20,000 nt of DNA from an uncultured virus (IMG/VR IMGVR_UViG_3300005526_000008) (IMGVR_UViG_3300005526_000008:55330-75329); one strand, 5' to 3'. Shown: positions 2,052 through 20,000, counted from the stretch's first letter. Program-made: numbers and translations. The notes: generated by a model not told the origin, from the letters alone.

Positions 2052-3826
2052 TTGCCGCGCTTTGCCGACCTCAACTGCGCCGCATGTTTGTGCGCCATCT
2101 GCTCGCCGTGCGCCAAGGCTGCTTTAACGCCGGGATGTTCATGGAAAGGCACGACATTCGATCCGGCAGCGTCCACCATTTGACCTTCAGCGCCCACCAT
2201 GGCGCCCGTCATTTGGCCATTTGCCGGAGTTTCGGCGCCGTTTGCCGGAGTTTGCGGCGCGATCCCCAGCGCCTCGATGATCTCCGGCGGCAGGCCCTGC
2301 ACGAGTTCGTCGACCGATGGGTCGCCCTCGCCGGGCGCGCCGCCCAGTCCGGCCATCTCCTGGCCCGGCATCGTCGGCTGCGGCAGGCCGGTGACGTCCC
2401 AGCCGTTCGCGATGATCTTCTTGATGCCCTCGATCGAGAGGAAGCCCATCGGGCCGATGCCGCGCACGAAGGGCGGCACGCCGAGCGGTTCCATGCCGCG
2501 CTCGGTGCGGATGTCGTCGAGCGAGATCGCGCCCTCGTTGACCAGGACGACGTCGCGCTGTTCCTTCTCCGCGGGGTCGACTTTTCTGAAATCGTCCCAC
2601 ACCATCTCGATGTCCGGAAACCCGAACCAATCGGCAATGATGTAGTCGAGGAGACTCTTTATCCACGTCATAAGTGGGGCGAGGCCCTCCTGCAGGGCCT
2701 GTTCGTACATCGTCTCGCCGGTCGCGCGGTTGACCAGGCGAACGAACGGGGTCGGCGGCAGCGAGAAGCAGAAGGCGATGATACGCGCCAGCCACTCGTC
2801 AAACTGGTCGACCAGCGCCTCGGGCGAGCGGGTCATCACCGGGGTCACGCCGCCCGGGGCAAAGCGCATCTTCCGCCGGGTTACCGCGTCGTTGACGATG
2901 GTGTCCCAATAGGCTTGGAACTCGGCGATCTGTTGCGTGGTCCAGGTCGGAGGCACCTGCCACACCGCGTCGGGGATGGTGCCGTCGGTGAAGTAGGCGA
3001 GTTGCTGCGCCTGACGCCGCAGGCCGATATTCGCGGTGACCAGCACCTGCTCAACCGGGCTGCAGCCGTAGACCTTGTTCACCCGCCGGTTGCGCGGCGC
3101 GTAGATCATGTCCTCCTTGGAGAACTCGGCCGCGACGATGCCCTTCATGACCTGTTGGTAGGCTGGCCCGTCGAGCGGGGTGCGGCCGTCGTAGTTGAGC
3201 AGCGGCTTGATCATCGAGCCGTCGATGAGCTCAAAGCCGACCGTCTCGCCGCCGCGGTTCTTCTTGCGCACGATGGTCGCGGCATCGATGACCAGGTGTT
3301 CCTCGACGAGTTGCGACACCCATTGCTGCCAGCCGATCTCACCGTCGGGGCGCTCGAAAATGGCCTCGAGCTGGCGACAGCGGTCGTCGGTCTTGGGCCG
3401 CGACGCCTGATCGCCCTGCTTCTTCGGCATGATCGACTTCTTGAGGTTGCCGATCTGGTCCTTGCGGGTTTCGATGGCGAGGCGGATCAGGTCGTAGCCG
3501 CCCACGGCCGGGTCGGCGATGGCGCGCAGGCTTTCGAAGTTGATCGGCTCGAAGGAGCGCGGCGTATAGATAGTATTGTACGAAGTGGGGTAATCGAAAC
3601 GCCGACCACCCGCCCCGGGCGCCACGGGATCGAGCGGCCGGCCCGGCGGAAAGAACGGCAGTTCCGTAGACCCTGCCTGCCCCATCCCCAACCAGGTTCG
3701 CATCTGCCCGGAAATCCGCTGTATCAGTCCCGCCTCGACCGGGGTTGATGGGGCGTTGTCGCGGTTCATTCCCGGCAGGTTCATCGGCCGGTGCGGCATG
3801 TTCCAGGAACTAGGCGTGAGCGCCAC
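2048..3826 (-). CDS. Phage portal protein (HK97-type Phage_portal family) with a low-complexity C-terminal extension
   Basis: 592 aa. Portal-like motifs YDLIRLAIETRKDQI, LVIDA, YGCSPVEQV, YFTDGTIPD, FDEWLARIIAFCFSLPPTPFV, EGLAPLMTWIKSLLD and ISLDDIRTERGMEPL. GTG start abuts the upstream TAA. Confidence 0.93.
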   Translation of the reverse strand: MALTPSSWNMPHRPMNLPGMNRDNAPSTPVEAGLIQRISGQMRTWLGMGQAGSTELPFFPPGRPLDPVAPGAGGRRFDYPTSYNTIYTPRSFEPINFESLRAIADPAVGGYDLIRLAIETRKDQIGNLKKSIMPKKQGDQASRPKTDDRCRQLEAIFERPDGEIGWQQWVSQLVEEHLVIDAATIVRKKNRGGETVGFELIDGSMIKPLLNYDGRTPLDGPAYQQVMKGIVAAEFSKEDMIYAPRNRRVNKVYGCSPVEQVLVTANIGLRRQAQQLAYFTDGTIPDAVWQVPPTWTTQQIAEFQAYWDTIVNDAVTRRKMRFAPGGVTPVMTRSPEALVDQFDEWLARIIAFCFSLPPTPFVRLVNRATGETMYEQALQEGLAPLMTWIKSLLDYIIADWFGFPDIEMVWDDFRKVDPAEKEQRDVVLVNEGAISLDDIRTERGMEPLGVPPFVRGIGPMGFLSIEGIKKIIANGWDVTGLPQPTMPGQEMAGLGGAPGEGDPSVDELVQGLPPEIIEALGIAPQTPANGAETPANGQMTGAMVGAEGQMVDAAGSNVVPFHEHPGVKAALAHGEQMAHKHAAQLRSAKRGK

Positions 3827-6062: not shown

Positions 6063-9000
6063 TCACGCCATCATCATGACGCGCGCTTGGCTGGCGAGGG
6101 CCTGGGTTCTGGCCGAAACGGCGACGTGACCCGCACCAGCAATGTCAACGCCCATGAAGATGGTTCGTGCCGAACCAATCTGGACGTTGCCCTGGCCGAC
6201 GATGATCGCCGAAACCGGGCACATCGCATAGGCGGTGAAGCCGCCGCCGCCGACGCCGTCGATCTGCGTGGCTGCGACCTGGCGGGTGTTGCCCCTGACG
6301 GTGACGCTGGCCTGAGCGTCGATGGTAACGACGGCAGCACGCAACGCCGTAGCGTTGACGTTGACCGCGCCCTGTCCGGCGATCGCGATTGTCGCGAACT
6401 GCGCCTTGTAGGCATCGACGGCCACGCTGCCCTGGGCCGCGATCGATGTGGCGCCGTAGGTGATGCGCGCGGCATCGATGCTGACGCTGGCCTGGGCCGC
6501 GATCGCGCTGGCCGCGACCATGCGCTGGGTGGTGGAGATGCTGACCGTGGCCGAGGCCGCGATCGCGGTGGTGCCTTCCTGCCGCCCTTGCTGGATTGCG
6601 TTGACGAGGAGGGTGCCGACGCCGCCGATCGAGACCGTGGCGAACTGGCGTACGCCGGCGGCGATGCTGACTGTGCCCAGTCCAGCAACCGCCACCGCCG
6701 TAACTTGGGTCAGGACGCTGCCGGCACTAACCGCGCCCTGCGCGGCCGTCGCCACCGCCGCCGGGCGTATACCGCCGGCGGCAGCACTGACCGCGCCGAC
6801 GCCAACGATCGAGGCGGCTGCGGGTTGCGCTTCACCCCCCGCGCCGAGGACGTTGCCGACGCCGGCGACGCTGACGGCAGCGAATTGGAGCTGCGCGGCC
6901 GCGACGCTGACCGCGCCCTGGCTGTCGATCGATGCTATGGCTGGTGAGCTGCGCCGCGCGTCGACCGCGACGTTGCCCAGGCCGCCGATCGTGATGGTCG
7001 CTGTCTGCACGCCGGCCGCTGCGGCACTTGCGGCGAACGCCCCAAGGCCCGCGATGGTCGTGGCGGCCGGTAGGTTCAGGACGGCGGAGGCGGCGACGCT
7101 GCCGGTGGCCGCGATCGCGATTGCTGCCGGTAGATTAAGGGTGGCGGATGCCGTGATGCTGCCGACGCCAGCGATCGTCGTGGCGGCGGTGTAGGAAACC
7201 GCCCCGCTGACGAACTGCGCATCAGCCGTGACGTTGCCGACGCCCGCGATGCTGGCCGTGGCATAGATCAGCTTGCCGGCCGAGGCCGCGACACTGCCAA
7301 CGCCGCCGATCGTCGCCGCGGCATAGACGATCTTGCCGGCATCGACCGCAACGCTGCCCTGTCCGGCAATCGGGATCGTCGCGAACCGGCGCGCGATCGC
7401 GTCAACGCTGACCGCGGCCTGGCCCGCAATGGCGACATTGCCCGGCTGCGAGCCGGCCGAATTCGCGCCGAACGCGCCAACGCCAGCGATCGCGATCGTC
7501 GCGAACTGCCGTTGTATCGCCGTGACGCTGACGGTGCCGAAACCCGGGATGCCAGCGGCAGCAGCTTCCGGCGTTACGGCAGCGGCGCTGACGTTGCCGA
7601 CGCCCGCAATCGTCGTCGCAGCATAAATCAGCTTGCCGGCCGCTACCCCGACGGTACCGACACCGGCGCTCGTGCTGGCCGCCACCATGCGCTGGATAGC
7701 GGCAACGCCGACTGCGCCCAGGCCGGCGCTCGTGCTGGCGGCCGGCTGCGCCCTGATGGCATTGATCGCAACGCTGCCAATGCCAGCACTCGTGCTGGCC
7801 GCGACCTGACGCTGGACGGCAGACGCCGCGACGTTGCCAATGGCCGCGATAGTGACGGCAGCGGTCCATACAGTGCCTGCTGGGGCTACCTTGGTCGCGT
7901 CGACCGCGATGCTGGCGACGCCCGCGATCGTCGTGGCGCCATAGGAAACTTGCCGTGCGCTGACGGCAACGTTTCCCGTCGCGGCCATGCTCGCCACAGG
8001 TTCGATAGTTGCCGGCAAAGCAGATAGGGGAATCAGGCCTGCCGCTGTGGGTAAGGGAGCATAGAATTGGATTGACCGGACGGCGACATAGCCGCCTTGG
8101 ATTGGTCTGTGATCGAATATTGCCGCCTTGAAGGAGTCCGCTGTCGGACGGTCCGCATCGATCAAAGTCAAAGCGATGGGGGTGGAATAGCCGTTGATGT
8201 CGGCTTCGAGACGGTTCGCGGTGACGGTGTAGGCCGTCACGTTGATCGCGCCGACGGCGGAATTGGCTGCGCCTAAGATGTCGCCGTAGGCCGGACCGCC
8301 CCATGTAGAAACGTCGAGATGGCTAGAGGCGCCAGGGGCGAAGGGGGTTAAGTCAATTTCCACGCCGTTGTCGCCGGACGGCGAAAAAACAGAAAGAACC
8401 ACACATCCGGTAGATGATCCTGAAATATTTTGACCGGTTTGGGTGTGGACGGTTCGCACCGTCGTAGCTGTCAGCAGTAAGTTACGGGCTTCGCCGATGA
8501 AAGCCGCGGACATCGTTGGCAGATAGCCGTCGGGGGTCAGTTCGGCGCTGTTGTAGCCCGTAGTCGTCCAGCCGGCGTCCGCGAGCGGGTCGTTGCCGAC
8601 GAGGGTGTTGATGCCGACGACGCCGACCCCTTGCACCCAAGCTCGGCCCTGTGGAGATCCTCCGATGAAGTCGATGTGGATCTGCGCACCTGGTGACACC
8701 CAGTCGGGGGCCAGTATCGCGGCGACGTTGCCCGCGCCGGCAATGGTCACTGCCGCGACCATGGTGACGCGTTCGCGGATCTGGATGGCGCGGAACGAAA
8801 CGGCCGGCGCCCCGACCGGCGGCAAGATCAGATCGCTGGGACCGTCCTCCGAGTAGCCGAGTTCGAGTTGCGGGGCGCCAATTCGTAGAGTGTTGTCGAA
8901 GGGAACGGCGGCGGCGCTGTCGAGGCCAAAGCCCCAGTAAGGCCTGATGAAGCGGACATCTGAAAAGGTGTTGGTGTCCGAGATGTCGTGCCTACAATCC

Positions 9001-12000
9001 CACAACGGTCCCGTGAAAGCGGATTTTCCGTCGGAATGATTGCTGTAGTGGACTCCGTTTTCGTCGAGCTCTTCCCAGCCTATGTAGAACATGCTGACGG
9101 GGCCCCATATGCCCTCGCCCACCAGTTGCTTGAGGTAAAAGCTGAATAGCCATCCCTGGTCGTAGCCTGCCGGGATGGCTGTGTTGGTTTCGAAATAATA
9201 AAAGTCCGAGCTGTAGTGTACCCCGTCGGTGGTGCCGAAGATGCGGACGTCGATGTAGGGGATGCCGTCTTCGTAACCCGTGCCGAGGATGGTTAAGCTC
9301 AGTCCCACGCTCGCGGCTGCGGCGCTCCAGTCCGAGAAGTAGGTCGGGACGGTGCCCGGAGTGCCCGCGACCGCGCCCTCGAAGCGTGGGTTGCGGATGT
9401 AGTTCGCCTGGCCGCCAAGACCGGCGATGGAAGTGACTGCCGACTGTCGAAGAAAAACGTTGACTGGGCTGAAGGTTGTGGTGGCAGCGATGGTGGCAAA
9501 AGCATCGTAGGCAATATGTCCTGCCGGATTTCGGACCAGCGCTTCGCAGACGACGCGGCCAACTCCACCCATAGCCACGTTCGTCTGGATCTTGACGTTG
9601 TCACGGATTTCAATCGCGCGCGACGTGACCGCGAGAACACCGACCGGCGGCAGGATCAGACCGGAAGCAGATGGTCCCAACTCGAGTTGCGGGCCACCGA
9701 TCCGAATGATGATGTCAACCGGAACGCCCAGACTGGTAAAGTATATTTTCCAATACGGACGAATGTAGGTGGCGAGAGCGGTGGTAGGATTAGCGTAGCT
9801 GTATCTTTGGCTTGACAAAGGCGCCGACGTCGGCACTTGCCCGGTATCGAAATCTCCGATTATATCAGCAAATTTACTACTATATTCTGTCCAGCCAACG
9901 GCAAGAGACGCAACATTGGAGGTGCTGCCTCCAACCAGTCTGACGTAGATGCTGCTTGACCAGGTTTTCCTCGGGGGTACCGGGATGGTGTCGTAGTCTT
10001 CGAAATAATGCGGATAGTAGGCCGTGCTCCCCGCCACCGTACCAACAAGATGAATGTCGATGTAGGGAATGCCGTCTTCGTAGCCGACGCCGGCAATAGT
10101 TTCGAACAGGCCGGACGGTGGGTTTCCCCACCCGGTCCAGTAGGTCGGCGGCGATCCTTCACTGGTGGAGGGATCGCCCGCCCTTCCGCCTTCCCCGCGC
10201 GGATTGCGAATGACGTTGGTCCGGCCGCTAACGCCCGCAGTCGTCGAGGCTGTGTAGACCGGGTGAAAATCCCAGGCCCTGACATTGCCCAAGCCACCGA
10301 TAGTGCTGACAGTTCGCGCTCTCAGAACAGCGCTATCGCTAACCGCACCCAGGCCGGCGATCGTGCTGGCGGCAACTTGGCGTTGAACCGCGGCAACACT
10401 GACCACAGCAACGCCGGCGCTCGTGCTGGCTGCATAGACAATGCGCCGCGCATCGACCGCAACATTGCCGGCAGCAGCGATTGTGCTGACCGCAACCTGG
10501 CGCTGAACGGCACTGACCGCGACGTTGCCGGCAGCCACGATCGTCGTGGCGCCGGTCCACTGGGTGCCCGCACCGGCCACCCGGGTCGCGTCGACCGCGA
10601 TGGTGCCGACGCCGCCGATCGTCACTGCCGCAACGGCCTGCAACCTGGGGTAGATCTCGATCGCGCGTGTGATTATCGCTGGAGCACCGACCGGCGGCAG
10701 GATATTGCCGGTGGTTTCGACGTTCTCCAGTTGTGGCCAACCAATGCGCAGCGTGAAGTCAAGCGCGGCTCCGCTTATCTTGGTATCGACATAGATATAT
10801 TGACGCATGTAGTCGGCGCCGGCTGTCGTGGTGGCGTTGTTCGCCACCGACACGTAGCGGGTGCCCAATCCGCCTGGTTGCACCAGGGTCGAAGGGGTGA
10901 AGTAGGTGTCAGTAATCCAATCGACTTGCCCGCCGCTATTGGCGTAGCTCTGCATCGACACCCAGAGGTAATCGATGAACGACGCATCGCCGGGGATAAT
11001 GCGCATGTAGAACGACGACGCCCAGGTCGAGGTTCTTGGGACCGGTGTCGCATCGCCATCCTGGGCAGGCTGTATGGTGATCTCACCGCCGCCGGGCGTG
11101 GACCCGGTGAAGCGAACGTCGATGTAGTCGATGCCATTCTCGACCCCGGTCCCGACGATCTGCTGGGTAAGACCGGCGTTGTTTACTATCTGTCTCCAGT
11201 AGGTCGGAATGGAGCCCGGCGTTCCGGCAACCGCGCCTTCCGCGCGTGGGTTACGGATATAGTTGGTTCTGCCGCTGACGCCGGCGATGGTGGCTGCAGC
11301 AGTCACCGTGCCGGTGTGCACCGTGGCGTACGCCTTGACGTAGCCGGTGCCGCCCGGGGTGGAGGGCCAAACCGTGTAACCCGAGGGCGGAGTGTTGGCG
11401 AAGGAGCCCAGGCCCATCTCGACCGTGGCGCTGATACCGGAATTCACCCCCAGTTGGGTCACTATGAAAAGCGGCGTGACCGGCACCAGGCCGCTGATGT
11501 CCAGGCCGGTCGACGGCGTGGTCGGACTGTTCGAGGCGTTGTCGTTCCAGTTGCCGCTCGGGAGCTGACGGAACCAAATCCGCTTATTGTCCATGTCGAG
11601 CGCCATGGCGATCGACGCGGTCGACCAGGAGAACAGTATTCCCGTGTTAGAGCCGTTCAGCAGCACTCCCATGCCGGGTACGGCTATGCAGCAGTGGGTA
11701 CTCGGGGAATAGACCTCGAAATAGGTGGTGAGGGCCGTCGTGGCGACGCCAAAGCTACTGTTCCCGTCGAAGCCGCTGCCCGGCGTGAATTCGGCGTAGA
11801 ACTTGCCGCTGCTGACGACGGAGTTGCCCTTGGCGCCGTCGAAACCGCCGGCAGTTTTCGTGATCGTGCGGTTGTTGTTCGTGAACAGCGTCGTGGCCGG
11901 CGCGTCCGGGGACAGCGGGTTCCACGACGGCAGCGTGCCGATCGTGACGGCGCCGGTGTAGGTGGTTCCGGCCGTGCCCGCCACGACTGTCGCATCGGCC

Positions 12001-15000
12001 GCGACGGCGCCGAGGCCCGCGATCGTCGATTTCGCGACCGCGCTGACACGCTCGCGGATCTCGATGGCACGCGACGAGATGCCCGGTGTGCCGATCGGCG
12101 GCAGGATCAGGCCGGAGACGTTACTCCCTAGTTCAAATTGCGGAGCGCCGATCCTAAAAGTGATGTCGATAGCAACACCACTTCCGGTAACACCAAATCC
12201 CCAAAATGGAGAAACATAGTAGGTATTGCGATCCAGATTTTGGCCGGGCCCGACAACCAACTGACGTTGGCTTATGAGGGGCGCCGTGGTCGGGTCGAAG
12301 GGAGCGCCGTTGTTGTGGACCGCAACCGCAGTGCCGGCGGCATTAAATTCACGCCAGCCAGCTTGGACCCCGGTGGTGTTGACCGTGCTGCCGCCAACTA
12401 AGCGGTGGTAGAAACTCAACCACCACGTGTCGGCAAATCCGCTGGGAATGCCCGCCGTCCCAGTGGGCTCGAAGTAAGCGGTGGTGAAGAAACCAGCGAC
12501 GTTAGTCGTGCCGGCGTAGCGGACATCAATGTAGGGAATGCCGTCTTCGGTGCCGATACCGATGATGCTGAACGTCAGGCCTAAATTGTCGCCCCATCCG
12601 TTCCAGAAAGTAGGAGCGGTGCCTGGCGTGCCAGCGACAGCGCCCTCGGCGCGGGGGTTGCGGATCGAATTGGTCCGACCGCTGACGCCAGCAAGAGTTG
12701 CATTGGCGGTATAGACAGCAGGGCCTATCCGCGTCGCATCGACCGCGACGGCGCCGACGCCGGCAATAGAAACGGCGGCGGCCAGGTTCTGGCTGAGCCT
12801 GCCCTGGGTGGCCGCACCCCAGTTTTCTACTGCGATTACATTCTCGCGAGCGGTTCCCAACGTCGGAGAGTAGGTTTGCTGGGTGGTGTCTTGAATGTAT
12901 TTCCACGCTCCGTTGAGAGTGGCATTCGTGTTCGCGACGCCGCCGGTATTGCCGACACGAGTAAGCGGCGGAGTAGTCCAATTATGGGTGGTGTCGTTAG
13001 TGAACGTCTCGACAACGTCGCCGGCGACGGCACTCACCCCTATCAACACGCCATAAGCCAAACTAGGGTTAAAATTCCGGCTCGGATTAGTAATGGCGGT
13101 ATTTTGAGTAAATGAGCTTTGAGGCGTCGGAAGCACGCTCCGTTGCAATCCGGTCGCATAAAAGATCGAAATGGCGGCGGTTAGAGCGGTTCCAACAATA
13201 GGGATCGTAATGGTTTGGCCGGCGCTTAGCGCCAGGCAGTTGGGACAGTAAGCTCTGGTTACACCGAATGAGGGTGTAGTAAGGATCCAGTTTCCGGGGA
13301 CCTGGGTGTAAACATTCCCTGCCGAATCAGTAGGGGGGCTGTTGAAACTGGCACCGCCGGAAGCCGTGACTGACGCGCTGTATATTACGATCAAGGAGCC
13401 GGCCGGCACGTTAGCCGTTAAGGTGACCGGCGTTGCGCCGCCGCCCGTTTTTTGCTGTGCCGTGCCGATCGCGAAGACCTGGGGTATATTATCCGGCGTG
13501 TCGAACTGCCCTTGTCCGGCAATCGTCGTTGCCGCCGTGACCCCCGCGGCCGCCGACCAGTTCGCGGTCGCTATGGTACAGGCGGACTGGTAAAAGACCA
13601 CTGCGCAGGAATTGGACGTGCCCGCGGTGGTCTCGTTCCACTCGACCTGGAAGAACAGGTATTCGCCATCCAGGATGATGGTCGGCGCGTTCCAGGTGAT
13701 GGTGGACGTGTAGGTCGTCGCAGTCGCTATCATCGACACGGTCGAGCCGGTCAGAGCGCCGCTGGTCAGCTCTCGCGCGTTGACGCCGTTCGAAGCGGGG
13801 CCGGCCCAGATCCGGCAGCGCATATTCCCCACGACCGTTGCCGCGAGGGTTCGCATGCCGAAATTGAGCGTCCAGTTGCCGGCGCCAAACGTACCGGCAT
13901 AGCGCACGGGCGAACGGAACGCATCGCCCGAGGTGGTGATGGTGGCGCCGGTGCCGGCGTTCGGATCAACGGCAAAGTCGAGATTGCTCGTCGCGGACGC
14001 AACTGTGGCGGTGGCGGTGGCGCCAATTCGAGCGCGCCAGAAAGGCGTGGTGGTGGCAGTTTTGGCAGTCGTCCATCCGAACGCGCTAGCTGCGGCAGTG
14101 GGTGCGGTGCCGCCGTCCTGCATCACGCCAAACCAGTCCGGCGTGGTGGCCGCCGTGTTCAGCATGTAGAGGGTCTTGGGCGAGCCCGCGCCGGGAACCG
14201 GCCGCAAGACCGGCGCTATCAGGGCAGGCGGCTGTCGCGCGCGCGGCGGCTGGCGGACAAGGCGAGCCTCCGCAATGTAGTCGAAGAAGGCCGCAGACGA
14301 CGCAGGGGTTTCATAGGGGCCGACGTCCCACGCGCTGCCTTGCGGCCGCGTCGTGCCATAGATGTCTGTGGCGCTGGGGATGTGGACGGTGTCGGTGTAG
14401 CCCGTGTTGAGCGCGTCGGCTCCCGCCTTCAGTTTGAAGTCGGTGCCAATGCCTACGAACTGGTTTGCCGCCGTCTTGCTGAACAGCGTCCCGGTATCGG
14501 TCCATCCTGACGGATAGCTGGTCCAGTTCACGACGTTGTTGCGCGCGACGCCCGAGGTCAGGTTGGCATTACCGATGCCGCCCCACCCCATGATTATGCA
14601 ATTCGTGACCGTCGTGGTGCCGGAGTAGTTGCGGTGGATGGCATCGAAACCGGCTTGTGAGTTCAGCGCGATCATCACGCAGTTGGTGAAGCTGCAGCTA
14701 TTGTTTTGGCCGTTCCATATCGGGCTGCCTGACCCTGCCACCGATTCGTCGATGAACACGCAGTTGACATGATCGACCGATGAGCTTCCGCCAGCCCCGA
14801 TGATGCCGTTGTTGGCCTGCTCGAAATTTTCCCCGCGCACAACCATCCGGCTGACCGTCGTGGTGCCGCTGCTGCCGTTTTTTCCCAGGGCCAGACTGGC
14901 ATTCTGATGGATCGCGCCTGGCGCTCGAACAAGCTGCAGGCCGTCCAGAAGCCCATAATCCTCTTGGAGGATAATATTGTAACTATAGTTGCCTGATCGG

Positions 15001-15446
15001 GATATCTGCACGCCATAGCTTGCGCTGGGGATTAGCGGGTTGGTGGCGCGGTTCGGATTGTCGGCGAAACTTTCACCCGGCGCGCATTTCAGGGAGATGA
15101 TGTTGGCGGCGGTTGTCGTGTGCCCCGTAATCGACACATACGTGGTGCGAACAATGTCGCCGTTGTTCCAGATCAAGCCTTCGTATGCCTGCGCCAGCGT
15201 GCCGGGGATCGACGTGACCCACGCATCGATGGTGGAATAGTCCGAAGCCCCGTAGGTCGAGAGCCATTTGAAGACGGCAACGCCGCCGTTGTTGATCCCG
15301 GTTCCGGTGCCGGTAGGGGCAGCGGTCGATGATCCTGCCGTGGTGCATCGGTAGGCGTTGCCGGCATTCGAGCATGCTTCGTTTAGCGCGAAGCTGTGGT
15401 TGCTCCAGGCTGCCAGGCCGGTGTGGATGTTACTGGTGACGGTCAA
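6063..15446 (-). CDS. Giant modular fibre/adhesin-like virion protein (3127 aa)
   Basis: One uninterrupted Ala/Gly/Thr/Val/Ser-rich ORF with a TTGA-coupled start and no signal peptide. N-terminal beta-helix-like region ends in a choice-of-anchor-Q-like motif (DFKLKAGADALNTG..DIYGTTRPQGSAWDVGPYE). Then several beta-sandwich domains, four homologous ~215-aa modules, a SPRY-like domain and 20-aa stalk repeats. Confidence 0.9.
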   Translation of the reverse strand: MTVTSNIHTGLAAWSNHSFALNEACSNAGNAYRCTTAGSSTAAPTGTGTGINNGGVAVFKWLSTYGASDYSTIDAWVTSIPGTLAQAYEGLIWNNGDIVRTTYVSITGHTTTAANIISLKCAPGESFADNPNRATNPLIPSASYGVQISRSGNYSYNIILQEDYGLLDGLQLVRAPGAIHQNASLALGKNGSSGTTTVSRMVVRGENFEQANNGIIGAGGSSSVDHVNCVFIDESVAGSGSPIWNGQNNSCSFTNCVMIALNSQAGFDAIHRNYSGTTTVTNCIIMGWGGIGNANLTSGVARNNVVNWTSYPSGWTDTGTLFSKTAANQFVGIGTDFKLKAGADALNTGYTDTVHIPSATDIYGTTRPQGSAWDVGPYETPASSAAFFDYIAEARLVRQPPRARQPPALIAPVLRPVPGAGSPKTLYMLNTAATTPDWFGVMQDGGTAPTAAASAFGWTTAKTATTTPFWRARIGATATATVASATSNLDFAVDPNAGTGATITTSGDAFRSPVRYAGTFGAGNWTLNFGMRTLAATVVGNMRCRIWAGPASNGVNARELTSGALTGSTVSMIATATTYTSTITWNAPTIILDGEYLFFQVEWNETTAGTSNSCAVVFYQSACTIATANWSAAAGVTAATTIAGQGQFDTPDNIPQVFAIGTAQQKTGGGATPVTLTANVPAGSLIVIYSASVTASGGASFNSPPTDSAGNVYTQVPGNWILTTPSFGVTRAYCPNCLALSAGQTITIPIVGTALTAAISIFYATGLQRSVLPTPQSSFTQNTAITNPSRNFNPSLAYGVLIGVSAVAGDVVETFTNDTTHNWTTPPLTRVGNTGGVANTNATLNGAWKYIQDTTQQTYSPTLGTARENVIAVENWGAATQGRLSQNLAAAVSIAGVGAVAVDATRIGPAVYTANATLAGVSGRTNSIRNPRAEGAVAGTPGTAPTFWNGWGDNLGLTFSIIGIGTEDGIPYIDVRYAGTTNVAGFFTTAYFEPTGTAGIPSGFADTWWLSFYHRLVGGSTVNTTGVQAGWREFNAAGTAVAVHNNGAPFDPTTAPLISQRQLVVGPGQNLDRNTYYVSPFWGFGVTGSGVAIDITFRIGAPQFELGSNVSGLILPPIGTPGISSRAIEIRERVSAVAKSTIAGLGAVAADATVVAGTAGTTYTGAVTIGTLPSWNPLSPDAPATTLFTNNNRTITKTAGGFDGAKGNSVVSSGKFYAEFTPGSGFDGNSSFGVATTALTTYFEVYSPSTHCCIAVPGMGVLLNGSNTGILFSWSTASIAMALDMDNKRIWFRQLPSGNWNDNASNSPTTPSTGLDISGLVPVTPLFIVTQLGVNSGISATVEMGLGSFANTPPSGYTVWPSTPGGTGYVKAYATVHTGTVTAAATIAGVSGRTNYIRNPRAEGAVAGTPGSIPTYWRQIVNNAGLTQQIVGTGVENGIDYIDVRFTGSTPGGGEITIQPAQDGDATPVPRTSTWASSFYMRIIPGDASFIDYLWVSMQSYANSGGQVDWITDTYFTPSTLVQPGGLGTRYVSVANNATTTAGADYMRQYIYVDTKISGAALDFTLRIGWPQLENVETTGNILPPVGAPAIITRAIEIYPRLQAVAAVTIGGVGTIAVDATRVAGAGTQWTGATTIVAAGNVAVSAVQRQVAVSTIAAAGNVAVDARRIVYAASTSAGVAVVSVAAVQRQVAASTIAGLGAVSDSAVLRARTVSTIGGLGNVRAWDFHPVYTASTTAGVSGRTNVIRNPRGEGGRAGDPSTSEGSPPTYWTGWGNPPSGLFETIAGVGYEDGIPYIDIHLVGTVAGSTAYYPHYFEDYDTIPVPPRKTWSSSIYVRLVGGSTSNVASLAVGWTEYSSKFADIIGDFDTGQVPTSAPLSSQRYSYANPTTALATYIRPYWKIYFTSLGVPVDIIIRIGGPQLELGPSASGLILPPVGVLAVTSRAIEIRDNVKIQTNVAMGGVGRVVCEALVRNPAGHIAYDAFATIAATTTFSPVNVFLRQSAVTSIAGLGGQANYIRNPRFEGAVAGTPGTVPTYFSDWSAAAASVGLSLTILGTGYEDGIPYIDVRIFGTTDGVHYSSDFYYFETNTAIPAGYDQGWLFSFYLKQLVGEGIWGPVSMFYIGWEELDENGVHYSNHSDGKSAFTGPLWDCRHDISDTNTFSDVRFIRPYWGFGLDSAAAVPFDNTLRIGAPQLELGYSEDGPSDLILPPVGAPAVSFRAIQIRERVTMVAAVTIAGAGNVAAILAPDWVSPGAQIHIDFIGGSPQGRAWVQGVGVVGINTLVGNDPLADAGWTTTGYNSAELTPDGYLPTMSAAFIGEARNLLLTATTVRTVHTQTGQNISGSSTGCVVLSVFSPSGDNGVEIDLTPFAPGASSHLDVSTWGGPAYGDILGAANSAVGAINVTAYTVTANRLEADINGYSTPIALTLIDADRPTADSFKAAIFDHRPIQGGYVAVRSIQFYAPLPTAAGLIPLSALPATIEPVASMAATGNVAVSARQVSYGATTIAGVASIAVDATKVAPAGTVWTAAVTIAAIGNVAASAVQRQVAASTSAGIGSVAINAIRAQPAASTSAGLGAVGVAAIQRMVAASTSAGVGTVGVAAGKLIYAATTIAGVGNVSAAAVTPEAAAAGIPGFGTVSVTAIQRQFATIAIAGVGAFGANSAGSQPGNVAIAGQAAVSVDAIARRFATIPIAGQGSVAVDAGKIVYAAATIGGVGSVAASAGKLIYATASIAGVGNVTADAQFVSGAVSYTAATTIAGVGSITASATLNLPAAIAIAATGSVAASAVLNLPAATTIAGLGAFAASAAAAGVQTATITIGGLGNVAVDARRSSPAIASIDSQGAVSVAAAQLQFAAVSVAGVGNVLGAGGEAQPAAASIVGVGAVSAAAGGIRPAAVATAAQGAVSAGSVLTQVTAVAVAGLGTVSIAAGVRQFATVSIGGVGTLLVNAIQQGRQEGTTAIAASATVSISTTQRMVAASAIAAQASVSIDAARITYGATSIAAQGSVAVDAYKAQFATIAIAGQGAVNVNATALRAAVVTIDAQASVTVRGNTRQVAATQIDGVGGGGFTAYAMCPVSAIIVGQGNVQIGSARTIFMGVDIAGAGHVAVSARTQALASQARVMMMA
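6096..8000 (-). repeat. About 31 tandem degenerate 20-aa (60-bp) coding repeats, consensus roughly AA(S/T)TIAGxGxVxVxAxxxxx
   Basis: Examples: AASTSAGIGSVAINAIRAQP / AASTSAGLGAVGVAAIQRMV / AASTSAGVGTVGVAAGKLIY. The 60-nt DNA period is visible (ctcgtgctggc recurs near 7669, 7729, 7789). Four units are 2-6 aa longer. Confidence 0.92.
8764..9423 (-). repeat. Fibre module copy 4 (~215 aa, CBM/jelly-roll-like)
   Basis: ANYIRNPRFEGAVAGTPGTVPTYF...GTGYEDGIPYIDVR...LRIGAPQLELG...LILPPVGAPAVSFRAIQIRERV; boundaries approximate. Confidence 0.88.
9592..10236 (-). repeat. Fibre module copy 3
   Basis: RTNVIRNPRGEGGRAG...PPTYW...GVGYEDGIPYIDIH...IRIGGPQLELG..LILPPVG..SRAIEIRDNV; boundaries approximate. 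Confidence 0.88.
10240..10635 (-). repeat. Internal block of ~6-7 stalk repeats (20 aa)
   Basis: GATTIVAAGNVAVSAVQRQV / AVSTIAAAGNVAVDARRIVY / AASTSAGVAVVSVAAVQRQV / AASTIAGLGAVSDSAVLRAR. Confidence 0.85.
10640..11283 (-). repeat. Fibre module copy 2
   Basis: RTNYIRNPRAEGAVAGTPGSIPTYW...GTGVENGIDYIDVR...LRIGWPQLEN..ILPPVGAPAIITRAIEIYPRL; boundaries approximate. Confidence 0.88.
11355..11930 (-). other. SPRY/B30.2-like (ConA-fold) domain inside the fibre
   Basis: FTNNNRTIT..SSGKFYAEF..FGVAT..IAMALDMDNKRIWFR..FANTPPSGYTVW follows the SPRY pattern seen in phage fibres. Confidence 0.75.
12046..12689 (-). repeat. Fibre module copy 1
   Basis: RTNSIRNPRAEGAVAGTPGTAPTFW...GIGTEDGIPYIDVR...FRIGAPQFELG..LILPPIG..SRAIEIRERV; boundaries approximate. 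Confidence 0.88.
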
Positions 15447-15856
15447 CCAATTATCTTTCCGCTATCACCGATCACCTTCGGATCGGGGAGCGGGGGCTTC
15501 TGTACTTTCAAGGCCAGCACTTCATCCAGGGGAACATTGGCGCCGGAACGCAAGACGCCGCCGGTGTAGCTGTCCACGTCCACCCTGAAGCCGCGAAATT
15601 GCAGGGTGTTGGTGGTGTCCCACCATTGGGCGTCCTCGTTCCCCGGCTGCGGCATTTCGGGCGATAAGAATGATTCCAGATCGGTCACGGTAGCATCGGG
15701 CACCACGACCACAACAAATGGGTCGGTTTGTTCGGCCAAGCTCCAGCCCCAGCCGTCAGGCTGCACCACGATCACGTCGCCACGCTGCGACAGCTTGCTG
15801 GTGTGCTCGATGTCAGCGCCTTGCCGGTCCTGCATCCAGAGCAGCATTTCCGCCAT
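15443..15856 (-). CDS. Hypothetical protein coupled to the giant fibre gene (possible fibre chaperone or tip partner)
   Basis: 137 aa from ATG 15856 (TGATG overlap): MAEMLLW..RGDVIVVQPDGWGWS. Its stop overlaps the fibre TTG start. Confidence 0.8.
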   Translation of the reverse strand: MAEMLLWMQDRQGADIEHTSKLSQRGDVIVVQPDGWGWSLAEQTDPFVVVVVPDATVTDLESFLSPEMPQPGNEDAQWWDTTNTLQFRGFRVDVDSYTGGVLRSGANVPLDEVLALKVQKPPLPDPKVIGDSGKIIG

Positions 15857-16173
15857 CACACGGTGGCCTCGCGCCACCCGTCCCATTCCTGCACCACCTC
15901 ACCCTGCGGGGTGCGGTGGCTGTAGACGCACCAGTATTCAGTGCCGTCCTCTAGCGCGGTGATCGCGTGCAACACGTCGCGACGAACAAGGAAGTGCGTC
16001 GGGGCATGGAAGTCACGCTCTATGACCGTGCCGTTGGGCAGCGTGGCCGAGACATGCACGGCGCCCTTAAAGACAATCGTTGTGTGATCAAAATTGTGGG
16101 TATGGCCGCCTGATGTAGCGCCTTTCGTCGGCTGGATTTTGCGAATGAAGACGTTGCCACTGACCCACTCCAT
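15856..16173 (-). CDS. Small cupin-domain protein
   Basis: 105 aa from ATG 16173. GHTHNFDHTTIVFKGAVHV...PTHFLVRRDVLHAITALED gives the two cupin metal motifs (HxHxxxH...H). Confidence 0.82.
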   Translation of the reverse strand: MEWVSGNVFIRKIQPTKGATSGGHTHNFDHTTIVFKGAVHVSATLPNGTVIERDFHAPTHFLVRRDVLHAITALEDGTEYWCVYSHRTPQGEVVQEWDGWREATV

Positions 16174-16174
16174 C

Positions 16175-16441
16175 TCACTCTCCCACCCCATACGACCGCA
16201 GCGCGTCAGCCCGCCGCTCCATGGCCTCGAGCCTGCGCTCGAACGGAGTACAGCCACCGAAACCAACGCAGTTCGGACAAATCAATCGCATGCACTGGTA
16301 GCACATGCCGCCAATCGCGGCCGGATCGGCCTTGGGCGGAACGTGGACAATGTGCTGGCAGTGGAAGCAGGTGAAAGTGTCCCGCTCCTTGGTGCCGTCA
16401 GGCCCGGTAATGACCGCGTAACCGCCCGGGCGTCGCATCAC
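16175..16441 (-). CDS. Cys-rich Zn-finger-like protein
   Basis: 88 aa. CFHC...CYQC..ICPNC....C followed by a helical tail (PFERRLEAMERR). Confidence 0.78.
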   Translation of the reverse strand: MMRRPGGYAVITGPDGTKERDTFTCFHCQHIVHVPPKADPAAIGGMCYQCMRLICPNCVGFGGCTPFERRLEAMERRADALRSYGVGE

Positions 16442-16912
16442 TCATTCCAGCCACATCACAGTGGCGAGGAAAGTCGAGGTGTAGACCGGACTGAGCGCGC
16501 GCGTGGCAATGCCGTTCAGGTTGGTCGCCGGAATAACCAACTCCTGCCCGAGCACCGCGACCCAGCGATAGGTCGCCCGCTGGTTGACCGCGACGGTCAG
16601 CATGGAACTGGTCGCCGTGATACCGGGCTCAGCAGTCGGGTTGGCGTAGGCAACCATCGTCGAGGCGGTATCGGCCGGTTCGGTCACCAGCGGTGTAACC
16701 GCGGCCCCGCCCGTGCCCGCCGTCGTCTGGCGTGAAACATCCCAGACCACGACGTTGTCGGCCGGCGTGCCATCTACCCCGAGGTTCAGTTCGTAGATGT
16801 GCGCCCGACGCAGGCCCGTCGTCTGTGCGCTCACCGACAGGCACGTCTTGTAGGTCGTCGTCATGACCTGCTGGGTGCCGCCCAGACGATTGTTGGCGCT
16901 ATATGAGGGCAT
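16442..16912 (-). CDS. Thr-rich beta-sandwich-like protein, probable virion structural subunit
   Basis: 156 aa, TAATG-coupled start, Thr/Ala/Val-rich alternating beta pattern. Function inferred from composition and context. Confidence 0.72.
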   Translation of the reverse strand: MPSYSANNRLGGTQQVMTTTYKTCLSVSAQTTGLRRAHIYELNLGVDGTPADNVVVWDVSRQTTAGTGGAAVTPLVTEPADTASTMVAYANPTAEPGITATSSMLTVAVNQRATYRWVAVLGQELVIPATNLNGIATRALSPVYTSTFLATVMWLE

Positions 16913-17169
16913 TAACCCTGTCCTTCCTCGACCCAGGCAAAGCTAAACGTGCACCGAGCATAGGCTTCAACGTGTATTGGGTGACTTGGCCAGAGCCTGC
17001 ACGCACCTTGCCAGTAGGCGTGATCGGTATCATGCACAGAACATAGCCGTTTGCCCTCCGGACCAGGGCGCAGACGGGGGCACATGCCGTCGACGGGGGC
17101 GGCTTCCCCCGGCGGCGAGCCGATACAACAGTCACCGCAGTGACAGCACTCACCTGACCGGACCCACAT
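16912..17169 (-). CDS. CxxCxxCC (YkgJ-like) cysteine-cluster Zn/Fe-chelating protein
   Basis: 85 aa from ATG 17169 (TGATG overlap): MWVRSGECCHCGDCC...MCPRL...LCSVH...ACRLWP...RCTFSF. Confidence 0.78.
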   Translation of the reverse strand: MWVRSGECCHCGDCCIGSPPGEAAPVDGMCPRLRPGPEGKRLCSVHDTDHAYWQGACRLWPSHPIHVEAYARCTFSFAWVEEGQG

Positions 17170-17567
17170 CAGGCGAGGGTGATGAGCAGCGATCCCGGGT
17201 TGATCAGCAGGCTGTCGCCGATCGCCAGGGTGCGCGCCACCGACAGCGTGCCGAACCACAGCGCGTTGCCGCCCGTCACTGCCGCCGTGTCCCAGATCGA
17301 GATCCCCGAGATCGTGCGCGCGCTGCTGAACGGCCCGTAGCTGAGCGTGTTGGCGTTCGAGCACGACCCGGCCGGCGAGGCCGCGGCGCCCATCGTCACC
17401 GTCGCCCGGTTGGCGCCCTCGCCGGTGGCGATCTCGTACATGCTCGCCGTGGTCGGCGCCGTACTGGTCGCCACCGCCACCGCCCAGGCGGCGATCGCCG
17501 GCTCGGCCGCGCCGCCCAGCGTGTAATCGAGCATCGCTTTCACGCCATATGGAGTAATGCCAGCCAT
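17169..17567 (-). CDS. Small phage fibre-type structural protein
   Basis: 132 aa. ANRATVTM..CSNANTLSYG..ISGISIWDTAAVTGGNALWFGTLSVARTLAIGDSLLINPGSLLITLA is the pattern of a widespread small phage structural family often annotated 'tail fiber protein'. Confidence 0.78.
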   Translation of the reverse strand: MAGITPYGVKAMLDYTLGGAAEPAIAAWAVAVATSTAPTTASMYEIATGEGANRATVTMGAAASPAGSCSNANTLSYGPFSSARTISGISIWDTAAVTGGNALWFGTLSVARTLAIGDSLLINPGSLLITLA

Positions 17568-17568
17568 A

Positions 17569-18609
17569 TCAGTGTCCTTTCAGGTTGGAGCGGACGGCGG
17601 TGAAAACCGTGTCGAGTGCGATGTCCGCCATGCACTTCGACGCCTCGGCGTCAGCAGCCTTGACGCAGGTGCTCGCGTCGTCATGCAGCCTGTGACAGGG
17701 ATAGCAGGGCACGCGCTCCGGATCGGCGTGCAAGGACGTCGTATTAACCCAGTGCTTGGTGATGTTCTCTTCCGAAGCGTGCGACAACACCACCACCTTC
17801 GGCATCTTCTCCATCGCCACCGCCCAGGCCAGCCCGGTGTCGGGCGTGAGCACCAGGTCGCATTGCTGAATGGTGGCGAGCGCCCGGCGGATCGGCCAGG
17901 ATGGGTTCTTGGGATCGGGGGAAATGGCGGCGTGCAGTCCGTCAAGCGAGCCACGCCAGAGCTGTACGAAGTCCTGGACGTGCTGCGCCATCTTGTGATC
18001 GCGCTCGCCGGCCCCGAACAGCACTACCCTGACCTCGAGCTCGCCAAGCAGGCGCACCACCAGCATCGGCAAGTACGGCCAAATCTTATCAAGGCGCGAA
18101 CCAGAGATGGCGATGCCGACCACCCGGCGGTTCACGCCGTCACGTACGTTGTCCAGCGTGTCCCCGGCCTGCATCTGCTCTTTCTCGGTCGGGTAGAAGC
18201 GCGGACCGGGATCGAACTGGTGCGCCACGCCGCAAATGTCGTGGACATATTCGAGGTAGTTGTGACCGCACATCTTGCGTCGGAAGGCATCTGGCCACCA
18301 AAACGCGCATTCATTCCTGAACAGCGCCAGCTTGGTTTCGCAGCTGTGCGACAGGTTCACCCACCAGTCGTATTCGCTGCCGCGGTCGCGCATCCAGGCA
18401 TGCCATTGCTCGCCGTTGCCACCGGACGGAATATCACCTTCCTTCTTGACGATAATCCGCGACACGTAGGGGTTATTCTCGAAAACACAGGCCTGCGGCG
18501 CCTGCGCCATGACGTCGACCTCGTGGTTTTTGGCCAGCAGCGATAGCGCTGAAGCGGCGATGAGATTGTCGCCGATGCCGCCGAGCCGAACCACGAGGGC
18601 CCGGCTCAC
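17569..18609 (-). CDS. Glycosyltransferase family 9 (ADP-heptosyltransferase-like, GT-B fold)
   Basis: 346 aa from GTG 18609 (GTGA overlap). ALVVRLGGIGDNL, VFENNPYV, SRLDKIWP, CDLVLTPDTGLAWAVA and C-terminal CYPC-x9-C-x10-CMADI. Confidence 0.88.
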   Translation of the reverse strand: MSRALVVRLGGIGDNLIAASALSLLAKNHEVDVMAQAPQACVFENNPYVSRIIVKKEGDIPSGGNGEQWHAWMRDRGSEYDWWVNLSHSCETKLALFRNECAFWWPDAFRRKMCGHNYLEYVHDICGVAHQFDPGPRFYPTEKEQMQAGDTLDNVRDGVNRRVVGIAISGSRLDKIWPYLPMLVVRLLGELEVRVVLFGAGERDHKMAQHVQDFVQLWRGSLDGLHAAISPDPKNPSWPIRRALATIQQCDLVLTPDTGLAWAVAMEKMPKVVVLSHASEENITKHWVNTTSLHADPERVPCYPCHRLHDDASTCVKAADAEASKCMADIALDTVFTAVRSNLKGH

Positions 18610-18842
18610 CCTGCGCTGCCCTGGGCGCTGATGTGGATGATCTCGTCGATGACAACGGTCTTGGGCTGGCCGTCGCCCGGCGGCCGCTTGGCCTGGTATT
18701 CCGCCCGCGTCGCCTCGAGCGCCGCCGGATACTTGTCGGGCGAGGTCTGCCACAACTGGTGTAATTCAGCTGCCTTCTCTTTTACCCAAGCCGCCAGGGC
18801 CGGGTAGTCATCGGCCGCACCCAATAGAGCTTCTTCAGTCAT
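18606..18842 (-). CDS. Small hypothetical protein
   Basis: 78 aa. ATGA overlap with the methyltransferase stop and GTGA overlap with the GT9 start; fills the gap exactly. Confidence 0.72.
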   Translation of the reverse strand: MTEEALLGAADDYPALAAWVKEKAAELHQLWQTSPDKYPAALEATRAEYQAKRPPGDGQPKTVVIDEIIHISAQGSAG

Positions 18843-19465
18843 TCATTCCTCCATTTGCGTAGCATTGCCCCCGGCTGGCAGAGCGTTTCCGGCACCGGCA
18901 GCGCGGATACCGACGTGAAGCCGTGGTGATCCAGCCGTTCAAAAACCGACACGCCATCGTCGGCCCATCCCCAGATCTGGCCCTCGCGCACCGGCACGAA
19001 ACGCTCCGGCCGTTCCATCGTGCACAGAGTGCCACCAGGGCTGATCCCCGCCTTTAGCGTGCGCATCACCCCGTCGAGGATCGGCATCGGGATATGCTGC
19101 AGACACCACACCGTCAGCCCGCCATCTGCCAGGAAAGCGTTCTCGACCATGCAGTTGAAGAACCGCGGCGTGACCGCCTGGAACCACTCCGGGTTGCCCA
19201 CATACGTCGTGGCCATGGCGCGCATCGAGGCGCTCTGGTCGACCCCGACCACGCAGCAGCTCGTCCGGTCGACCATGGCCTTGCTCATCCGGCCGATGCC
19301 ACAGCCGTAGTCCACGACCATGTCGAGCGGCACGAAATCGAGCTTCTCGATCAGCCACTCGGTCTCGAGCTTCCAGCGCTCGTCGGTCGACAGCCCCATT
19401 TCGGGCGTGAGGATGATCGACTTTGCTTCTTCGATCGTGGCGCAGTCGAAGATCGTTGAACCCAT
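18839..19465 (-). CDS. Class I SAM-dependent methyltransferase
   Basis: 208 aa from ATG 19465. Motif I VVDYGCGIGR, motif II VVGVDQSASM, then WCLQHIP..ISPGGTL. No DNA-MTase catalytic motif (DPPY/NPPY/PC). Confidence 0.9.
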   Translation of the reverse strand: MGSTIFDCATIEEAKSIILTPEMGLSTDERWKLETEWLIEKLDFVPLDMVVDYGCGIGRMSKAMVDRTSCCVVGVDQSASMRAMATTYVGNPEWFQAVTPRFFNCMVENAFLADGGLTVWCLQHIPMPILDGVMRTLKAGISPGGTLCTMERPERFVPVREGQIWGWADDGVSVFERLDHHGFTSVSALPVPETLCQPGAMLRKWRNE

Positions 19466-19467
19466 GG

Positions 19468-20000
19468 TCACATCCGATTTGCAAGTATGGTTATGCCGAC
19501 GTCGGCGAGCAGCAAGTCTTGCTCCGGCGCCACGAGCTGCATGACGTCGCCGACCTCGAGCAAGCCGCCAGCGCCGGTAAGCAGGCAACTCGAACGGCTG
19601 GCTGGGGTGAGTGTTATCGTACCCAGTTCCACGACGCCGTCCGTTTCGCTCAACCGATTGAGCAGAAAGACCGCATTGGCTGCCGGCGGAGCCTTGGCAT
19701 AACTCACCGTGCCCGCCAGGCCGACCGGCACAGTCAGCGCGAAGCTCATCGGCAGGTTGATTTCTGTACCAGCCGCGGGGCGCCCGGCGTAGGGGAAGCT
19801 GATCGGCAACTGGCGCAACTCGACCGGAAGCTGGGGATAGCCGATCGGCACCGTCCCGAAATCGGCGATCTCGACGACCTCGACCAGCGGCGGCGGCGCC
19901 AGCACGTCGACCACGAGCGCGATCGGCGCCGGCATGATGACGTCGACCACCAGTACCGGCGGCGCGTCGACCACCACGTCAACGACGATGGTCTCGGTGA
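19468..20000 (-). CDS. Hypothetical beta-rich protein with N-terminal (V/I)VDV-Pro repeats; 5'-truncated
   Basis: Frame open to the window end (..TETIVVDVVVDAPPVLVVDVIMPAPIALVVDVLAPPPLVEVVEI), followed by a compact beta-rich domain. Stop lies just before the methyltransferase ATG. Confidence 0.75.
   Translation of the reverse strand, partial: TETIVVDVVVDAPPVLVVDVIMPAPIALVVDVLAPPPLVEVVEIADFGTVPIGYPQLPVELRQLPISFPYAGRPAAGTEINLPMSFALTVPVGLAGTVSYAKAPPAANAVFLLNRLSETDGVVELGTITLTPASRSSCLLTGAGGLLEVGDVMQLVAPEQDLLLADVGITILANRM

Follow-up and report, generated by a model that had tools for sequence, protein, structure and literature searches.

The terminal 20 kb of a 75.3-kb IMG/VR viral contig from an uncultured virus (IMGVR_UViG_3300005526_000008, positions 55330-75329, record G000; this stretch of 20,000 nucleotides (nt) is called the window below) carry a giant open reading frame (ORF), P0001, of 3127 amino acids (aa), in which globular domains alternate with a 20-aa repeat. 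The question raised by this locus is what kind of structure such a chain forms. A first-pass annotation, made from the sequence, described the region 6063-13540, i.e., the C-terminal ~2490 residues of the giant ORF, as a 'bottle-brush': a free-standing stalk that displays at least seven binding domains as side branches and is unlike linear tail fibres. The reading favoured here, to which we give a probability of about 0.55, is that the giant ORF encodes the rope in a virion fibre of the chain-like (rope-and-bead) type; Gp80-like dimers would be strung on it, and lectin-like domains would be part of its chain at the boundaries of the units.

Fibres of this kind are known from a handful of recent cryo-electron microscopy structures, in which, as described in two reports, the number of bead pairs is 2-11 and no more than a single Ig-like domain is embedded (PMC13730344, PMC12609058). 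In phages GP4, VP1 and A1002, fibre proteins of ~140 aa are described as dimerising and docking serially on a rope by beta-sheet augmentation, and in A1002 a fibre-dock domain of ~268 residues, into which an Ig-like domain is embedded, carries 11 dimers (PMC13730344). The extract on Bas63 describes a rope that threads the grooves of whisker monomers and completes their incomplete sandwiches (PMC12609058).

A 20-aa repeat runs through the giant protein

A profile built from 17 in-phase copies of the repeat has the consensus V-A-A-S-T-I-A-G-L-G-A-V-S-V-A-A-V-Q-R-Q (general form xAAxTIAGxGxVxVxAxxxx) and matched the giant protein 45 times. About 30 of these matches are in the C-terminal array (residues 2481-3127) and seven in residues 1594-1740, and between residues 2528 and 2747 there are 11 consecutive copies with an exact 20-aa spacing. 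The C-terminal array is 6.2% charged (22.8% in a true DUF2807 helix segment), 69% of its residues are A, G, S, T or V, and both faces of its strands are apolar; the low charge and the apolar faces fit burial in a partner. No repeats were found on the other proteins of the 75-kb contig at a score of at least 6. Pfam and PHROG searches with the entire giant protein gave no match, Pfam searches with seven pieces of it gave nothing usable, and a PDB sequence search with the entire protein (phmmer) returned only 3pet_A (E 0.012); its N-terminal 635 aa matched nothing meaningful among the PDB sequences.

Most inserted domains enter the repeat at its GxG turn

Seven globular inserts are present in the range, and six of them begin at repeat positions 7-10, i.e., at the GxG turn, after which the repeat is back in register, in agreement with the first-pass annotation. 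Truncated copies, at residues 637-646, 1382-1390, 1731-1739 and 2003-2011, stop at profile position 9-10 immediately before the insert named TDSAG and before modules 2, 3 and 4, respectively; module 1 is preceded by ...ATLAGVSG, and the SPRY-like insert splits a repeat between positions 7 and 8. Repeat position 14 precedes the 'ConA-like' insert (2246-2480). On the other side of the inserts, the spacing from the end of the module to the next xTIAG is exactly 14 residues (RAIEIxxxVxxxxx) in all four modules, which equals the canonical 13 plus 1, and the same spacing was read by eye, with no count over all homologues, in the homologue junction rows that were checked (e.g., P0002, P0003 and P0005). 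Since the inserts begin at fixed repeat positions and the 14-residue spacing is constant, the insertion point is not random with respect to the register. Since the four modules, at 41-42% identity, are paralogues that were duplicated together with their flanks, only three insert families (the module, the SPRY-like insert and TDSAG) count as independent evidence for the register.

The adjacency of the insert termini, which the side-branch design had implied, was analysed on an AlphaFold2 (AF2) model of residues 1594-2011. The module rows for its alignment came from 110 units found in the loci, which were reduced to 90 at ~80% similarity; 82 were used, together with 12 rows that have repeat flanks, and the resulting 95-row alignment covered the module deeply and the repeats with 0-12 rows. 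The predicted local distance difference test (pLDDT) score was 94-98 in module 3 and 30-66 in the repeats, and the predicted template modelling (pTM) score was 0.58. In the DSSP string, which does not print the bridge partners, the flank bridge residues of the model are solely 146, 150-151 and 348-349, 353, with a pairwise sum of 499. Because a constant sum fits an antiparallel ladder between the flanks, the termini of module 3 would be adjacent. The bridges thus fit the side-branch geometry, and the flank pLDDT of 45-66 keeps this part of the earlier claim provisional.

Twelve homologues of 1788-3043 aa were found, on phage contigs only. They have the same scaffold with 1-8 modules and other inserts (LamG, TDSAG), and all of them end in a long array, so that the number of modules and the types of insert vary on one repeat scaffold, in support of the first-pass annotation. 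In the P0003-type homologues, successive modules are only 21-22 residues apart. Module-based metagenome and genome scans gave 29 and 7 loci, respectively, and added few repeat-type relatives.

The modules are CBM4-like and the labels of other inserts putative

As modelled, the four modules are CBM4-2-like jelly rolls, with a beta-jelly-roll fold over the full module. Module 3 (model residues 149-331) aligned in the VIA search with 2y6j (Z 13.2, root-mean-square deviation (rmsd) 2.9 Å, 158 of 167 residues aligned), and Foldseek returned matches to CBM4/16/22, while no Pfam match to CBM_4_9 was obtained from the sequence at E<=1. The modules thus resemble CBM4, CBM16 and CBM22 as well as CBM-like phage fibre heads (5w6h, CBA120 TSP4, Z 12.3; 8zdp, Douge gp20, Z 12.1), from which they differ in identity (10-17%) and in being nested inside a repeat unit and not terminal. 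The CBM4-like module was also found in ~70 viral loci, in ordinary phage fibre proteins, and in gp49 of Azospirillum phage Cd; elsewhere it is usually nested between '...GLLIEE' and 'TRAAD...' strands, and hence it appears to be an insertion-type domain in general.

The SPRY label of the first-pass annotation is backed by protein language-model neighbours, since 29 of 30 Atlas neighbours were SPRY clusters (score 0.98; 17-74% of the members of these clusters carry SPRY), but it gained no Pfam SPRY match at E<=1, and we speak of a SPRY-like insert. For the 'ConA-like' insert, which had no Pfam match, the Atlas leads were weak and mixed (0.87-0.90), to DUF6645, LamG and CBM, and the label is putative. 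A sugar-binding function of the inserts is suggested by fold only. Lookalikes of the TDSAG insert were seen, by eye only, at the N-terminus of other rope-type proteins.

The repeat class adjoins Gp80-family genes

A Gp80-family gene is located 1.7 kb upstream of the giant gene, and its product matches PF23140, the family of the bead in the chain-like fibres of GP4, A1002 and Bas63, with 71.3 bits against a cut-off of 27. PF23140 was present in three of three viral records with repeat-bearing giants and in none of two without them. When viral contigs were scanned with a Gp80-like alignment, 16 loci were obtained, 15 of which are from other phages, and in 11 of these 15 a same-strand downstream ORF has at least five GxG units; of the four misses, two are cut off by the end of the contig (94 and 311 nt past the gene) and two have Gly-rich ORFs instead. 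Roughly eight of the 11 positive loci are independent, since one 875-aa protein is common to three of them and two are on contigs that had turned up before. A strict regular expression for GxG units failed to pick the array of the present phage itself. Among the loci selected by their CBM module (105, or 84 after de-duplication, with L040, which de-duplication had dropped, put back), a Gp80-like gene was present in three of three array loci versus one of 81 without an array (L040; Fisher p 4e-5). The repeats of these loci belong to one class: in 11 of the 12 array ORFs measured from the uncultured Gp80-like loci, and in that of MEP401 as well, the modal spacing is 20 residues and the consensus is of the type A-x-Phi-A-G-x-G-x-Phi-x-A, both of which are shared with the giant protein. 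The median spacing of the 12 is 20 residues except in two ORFs, where it is 21 and 22.

The arrangement also occurs in cultured phages. In the GP4-like phage Heva, the Gp80-like protein matched the GP4 gp80 chain 8jou_a with E 7e-86 over all 140 residues, and the gene right after gp80 has ~8-11 GxG units (8 by script) with ~20-aa spacing; MEP401 has the same Gp80-like gene plus repeat gene. Because the repeat class is found beside Gp80-family bead genes, one of them in the window itself, the filament is probably not the free-standing stalk of the first-pass annotation.

Some of these loci differ in detail. The one array-free locus with a Gp80-like gene, L040 (3965-6703), has a 913-aa ORF in which a Gp80-like domain (residues 89-215, E 1.5e-14) is fused to a pectate-lyase-type beta-helix lookalike, and this may be a bead carrying an enzyme. 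Tandem Gp80-like paralogues precede the repeat protein at L126 (9968-10805) and L128 (7415-8667), which recalls the two bead proteins of A1002, and at L120 (10397-13654) and L127 (10397-13637) two paralogous ORFs of 500-600 aa, with the look of a right-handed beta-helix by eye, stand between the Gp80-like gene and the giant. At L129 (10224-11522) and L132 (2893-4311) the gene following the Gp80-like gene encodes a GGxGG glycine-rich protein and not a 20-aa GxG array, and in the rope protein of L130 a Gly-rich stretch precedes the array. Three array-bearing ORFs (2147, 520 and 882 aa) surround a single Gp80-like gene at L065 (5336-20039), which suggests that a phage may have several ropes.

A probable rope for Gp80-like beads

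The docking, stoichiometry, polarity and virion presence that we infer for the giant protein would be as follows. Each 20-aa unit would provide two short apolar strands, joined at the GxG turn, that complete the open beta-sandwich of a Gp80-like subunit, and dimers of the 132-aa Gp80-like protein would be strung along the ~45 sites. The CBM4-like, SPRY-like and other lectin-type domains would sit in the same chain exactly at the GxG turn, i.e., at the unit boundary, so that beaded stretches would alternate with fixed sugar-binding heads. The C-terminal array with its conserved tail would probably be virion-proximal, and the variable N-terminal two-thirds would be host-sensing.

Three known systems come close to this design. 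In GP4 Fiber I (a Ralstonia podophage; 8JOU), gp80 dimers are carried by a separately encoded rope, and the present locus resembles it in its Gp80-family gene and, as in Heva, in the position of the bead gene upstream of the repeat gene; it differs in that GP4 is a podophage and the present phage a siphophage with an RcGTA-like tail, and in that GP4, as far as it is described in the extracts, has five dimers and no embedded lectin domains versus ~45 units here (PMC13730344, PMC12609058). The Heva repeat protein has 325 aa versus 3127 aa here. The nozzle-rope gp39 of the Pseudomonas podophage A1002, which we compared by its description in the extracts of PMC13730344, is a rope of ~300 Å that docks gp40/gp41 fibre dimers with ~24 aa per dimer, which is near the 20-aa unit, and its internal Ig-like domain is an earlier example of a globular domain within a rope; it differs in its fusion to a nozzle domain and in its two kinds of bead, whereas the present locus has one bead gene, a four-fold larger unit count and at least seven embedded domains. 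In the collar-whisker complex of the myophage Bas63, whisker dimers that are structural homologues of GP4 Fiber-1 are beaded on a rope, but this rope is described as a short extension at the N-terminus of the collar protein, with two dimers and no lectin domains (PMC12609058). The neck fibre of cyanophage A-1(L), a bead chain, was discarded as a model, since another design is described for it, trimers joined head to tail without a rope (PMC10966104). Our literature search found no rope described with lectin domains embedded in it or with a number of bead pairs above 11.

Rope, stalk, trimeric fibre or non-virion protein

The alternative that stays closest to the first-pass annotation is that the repeats self-fold into a beta-solenoid made of a single chain and two sheets, in which each repeat forms one rung with a rise of ~0.48 nm, the GxG arc is a permissive loop and the domains project sideways, while the Gp80-like protein is, for instance, a cap or adaptor; we consider this the main rival, possible but less likely than a rope. 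Several results weigh for it and against a rope. A rope should be an extended chain with ~12-24 residues per bead or dimer, and the giant protein has ~45 units of 20 aa, yet AF2 gives a solenoid for the array alone: the model of residues 2800-3127, which was built on a clean 23-row in-register alignment of true homologues, was moderately confident (pLDDT 71, pTM 0.68), and the array may thus fold on its own. In the exhaustive VIA search this model aligned to beta-solenoids with Z 20-23 over at least 300 residues, including CsgA (8c50, Z 23.3), the Pam1 tailspike (Z 22.6, rmsd 3.3 Å over 315 residues) and a beta-helical antifreeze protein (Z 19.9), and the DUF2807-type 'putative adhesins' 3ljy (Z 14.3) and 3jx8 (Z 13.8) came below many other solenoids. 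The weak sequence likeness of the giant protein to the DUF2807/3PET helix mentioned above, DUF2807 Pfam matches at E<=0.001 in nine of 17 distant array homologues (that of P0030 on the aligned stretch), the conserved insert register and the paired look of the module 3 flanks point in the same direction. The neighbourhood of the giant gene adds to these difficulties. Only one Gp80-like gene was found; the small ORFs between the bead and giant genes (15443-15886, 15856-16266 and 16442-16912) and the alternative-frame ORF that overlaps the Gp80-like gene (16912-17364) showed no Gp80 similarity (hhalign probability <1%); no collar-type anchor was recognised in the Pfam and PHROG scans of the contig, in which no dedicated search for one was made; and the giant gene is located between terminase and portal, outside the tail module. 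Moreover, the repeat proteins of Heva and MEP401 had no PDB sequence match, and the equation of the solved rope with this repeat protein is therefore something that we infer.

A self-folding solenoid in turn meets with several objections. AF2 readily builds solenoids from any regular beta repeat, and the seven-repeat array, for which there was almost no alignment depth, was not confidently folded (pLDDT 30-64). Foldseek found no PDB match to the array model at E<=0.001 (3pet_A, E 5.5, template modelling score 0.23-0.30), and its five BFVD matches at E<=0.001 are all uncharacterised phage proteins. The array profile matched no PDB sequence below E 1 (3pet, E 1.2), no Pfam match to DUF2807 (PF10988) was obtained on the array at E<=1, and none was obtained at E<=0.01 on 10 proteins from the Gp80-like loci, nine of which carry or flank arrays. 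The CsgA and DUF2807 helices (3pet, 3ljy, 3jx8) share with the array ~20-residue strand-turn-strand repeats and GxG-type turns, but the array lacks the Pfam membership and its strand faces are far less charged, being apolar on both sides; to our knowledge, no link to Gp80-like genes is known for these families. The 21-22-residue spacing of the P0003-type homologues would place ~200-aa modules on successive 0.48-nm rungs and on the same side of a solenoid, where by our estimate they would clash. Finally, a solenoid leaves the tight association with Gp80-like genes unexplained. The same association is left unexplained by a conventional homotrimeric tail fibre, in which the repeats of three chains would intertwine (as a triple beta-helix or spiral) and the lectin domains, also trimeric, would lie in line with them. 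The recurrence of the module in the tail-fibre proteins of other loci and of Azospirillum phage Cd, and the trimeric tailspikes and fibres among its VIA neighbours, would suit such a fibre, but no trimerisation motif or chaperone domain was seen, and the known ropes are single chains in the extracts available (PMC13730344, PMC12609058); we regard it as improbable. That the giant is no virion protein at all, and instead a secreted or cell-surface adhesin-like moron, strikes us as scarcely credible: the unusual position between terminase and portal and the flanking methyltransferase, glycosyltransferase (GT)-like ORF and two HNH genes would agree with it, but the giant gene has the orientation of the virion genes among which it is closely packed, all solved cases of the Gp80 family are virion fibre proteins, and the homologues are confined to phage contigs.

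If the giant protein is a rope, the rope-and-bead design scales to ~45 units, occurs on siphophages with gene transfer agent (GTA)-like tails, and carries many different sugar-binding domains at one fixed splice point, which would explain a diversified recognition of host surfaces by domain shuffling in such phages. A 20-aa AxPhi-AGxG-xPhi-xA array beside a PF23140 gene would then be a simple annotation signature for giant 'hypothetical' phage proteins. If it is a free-standing solenoid, it would be a rare instance of whole domains grafted into solenoid arcs. A wider proposal, which we put forward tentatively, is that the 20-aa GxG unit serves as a docking code of general use and its turn as a permissive splice site, by which one gene could program a fibre of >100 nm with Gp80-like bead pairs and lectin domains (CBM4-like, SPRY-like, LamG-like) in a set order. 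A long-tailed phage would then have an adhesion rope of programmable length and valency, encoded in a self-contained terminase-portal cassette that possibly includes fibre-modifying enzymes.

The locus and its phage

The features of the giant protein and of its neighbourhood are collected in Table 1. The same phage is present, at 100% identity, on a 91.5-kb contig (L007, record G003). The two contigs overlap partially, with a joint span of ~108 kb by coordinate arithmetic, and hence the phage genome exceeds either record. The predicted genes mark the phage as a siphovirus whose tail module is RcGTA-like; for this module the Pfam and PHROG scans gave a tape measure of 1875 aa, DUF2460, Gp84_N/BR0599, Phage-tail_3 and Rcc01698_C.

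Table 1. Features of the giant ORF P0001 and of the surrounding locus. Positions are those of the window unless a contig is named; residue i of P0001 begins at window base 15446-3(i-1), descending.
Feature	Residues	Position	Strand	Remarks
Portal		2048-3826
Giant ORF P0001	1-3127	6063..15446	-	TTG start overlaps the stop of the upstream ORF
C-terminal array and conserved tail (...ARVMMMA)	2481-3127	6066..8006	-	~30 copies of the GxG repeat
'ConA-like' insert (putative label)	2246-2480	8007..8711	-
Repeat segment	2219-2245	8712..8792	-	post-module strand RAIQIRERV and one copy
Module 4, CBM4-like	2012-2218	8793..9413	-	module hidden Markov model (HMM) 5.3e-91
Degenerate repeat segment	1944-2011	9414..9617	-	ends in a half-repeat before module 4; AF2 pLDDT 35-52
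Module 3, CBM4-2-like jelly roll (model)	1741-1943	9618..10226	-	AF2 pLDDT 94-98
Middle array	1594-1740	10227..10667	-	seven repeats; AF2 pLDDT 30-64, almost no alignment depth
Module 2, CBM4-like	1392-1593	10668..11273	-
Repeat segment	1366-1391	11274..11351	-	resumes after the SPRY-like insert (GTGYVKAYATVH...AAATIAGVSG)
SPRY-like insert	1171-1365	11352..11936	-
Repeat segment	1126-1170	11937..12071	-
Module 1, CBM4-like	923-1125	12072..12680	-	matches Azospirillum phage Cd gp49 'tail protein'
Repeat segment	886-922	12681..12791	-
'TDSAG' insert	647-885	12792..13508	-	recurs in P0002 and P0006 (BLAST)
First half-repeat	637-646	13509..13538	-	TAATTIAGQG
N-domain	424-630	13557..14177	-	conserved at the N-terminus of P0002, P0003, P0007 and P0008
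N-terminal region, outside the range of the finding	1-380	14307..15446	-	right-handed beta-helix look by eye; no Pfam or PDB sequence match
Gp80-family 'bead' gene, 132 aa		17169..17567	-	PF23140 E 1.2e-19; 8jou_a E 2.8e-6
GT9-like ORF (heptosyltransferase-like)		17569..18753	-	PF01075 E 5.9e-4, 19.7 bits, below the cut-off of 22
S-adenosylmethionine (SAM)-dependent methyltransferase-like ORF		18839..19588	-	PF13649 E 1.9e-7
Large terminase (TerL)		L007:561-2063		phrog_38 E 2.4e-73

On the longer contig the order of genes is TerL, small ORFs, methyltransferase, GT9-like ORF, Gp80-like gene, small ORFs, giant gene, three small ORFs, two HNH genes and portal. The gap of ~16 kb between terminase and portal, as seen in window 15443-19998 and L007:561-7358, holds the entire fibre cassette together with the methyltransferase, the GT9-like ORF and the two HNH endonuclease genes, and it is an unusual site for a fibre gene. 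The methyltransferase-like and heptosyltransferase-like ORFs stand immediately upstream of the Gp80-like gene (17569-19588); the GT9-like product might, speculatively, be a fibre-modifying enzyme, and on inspection by eye no rope-like tag was seen on either ORF. Right after the portal there is a 1129-aa ORF (window 3-2051, continuing to G000:53991), which had no Pfam or PHROG match, and the head module contains two more giant ORFs, of 1570 and 1649 aa.

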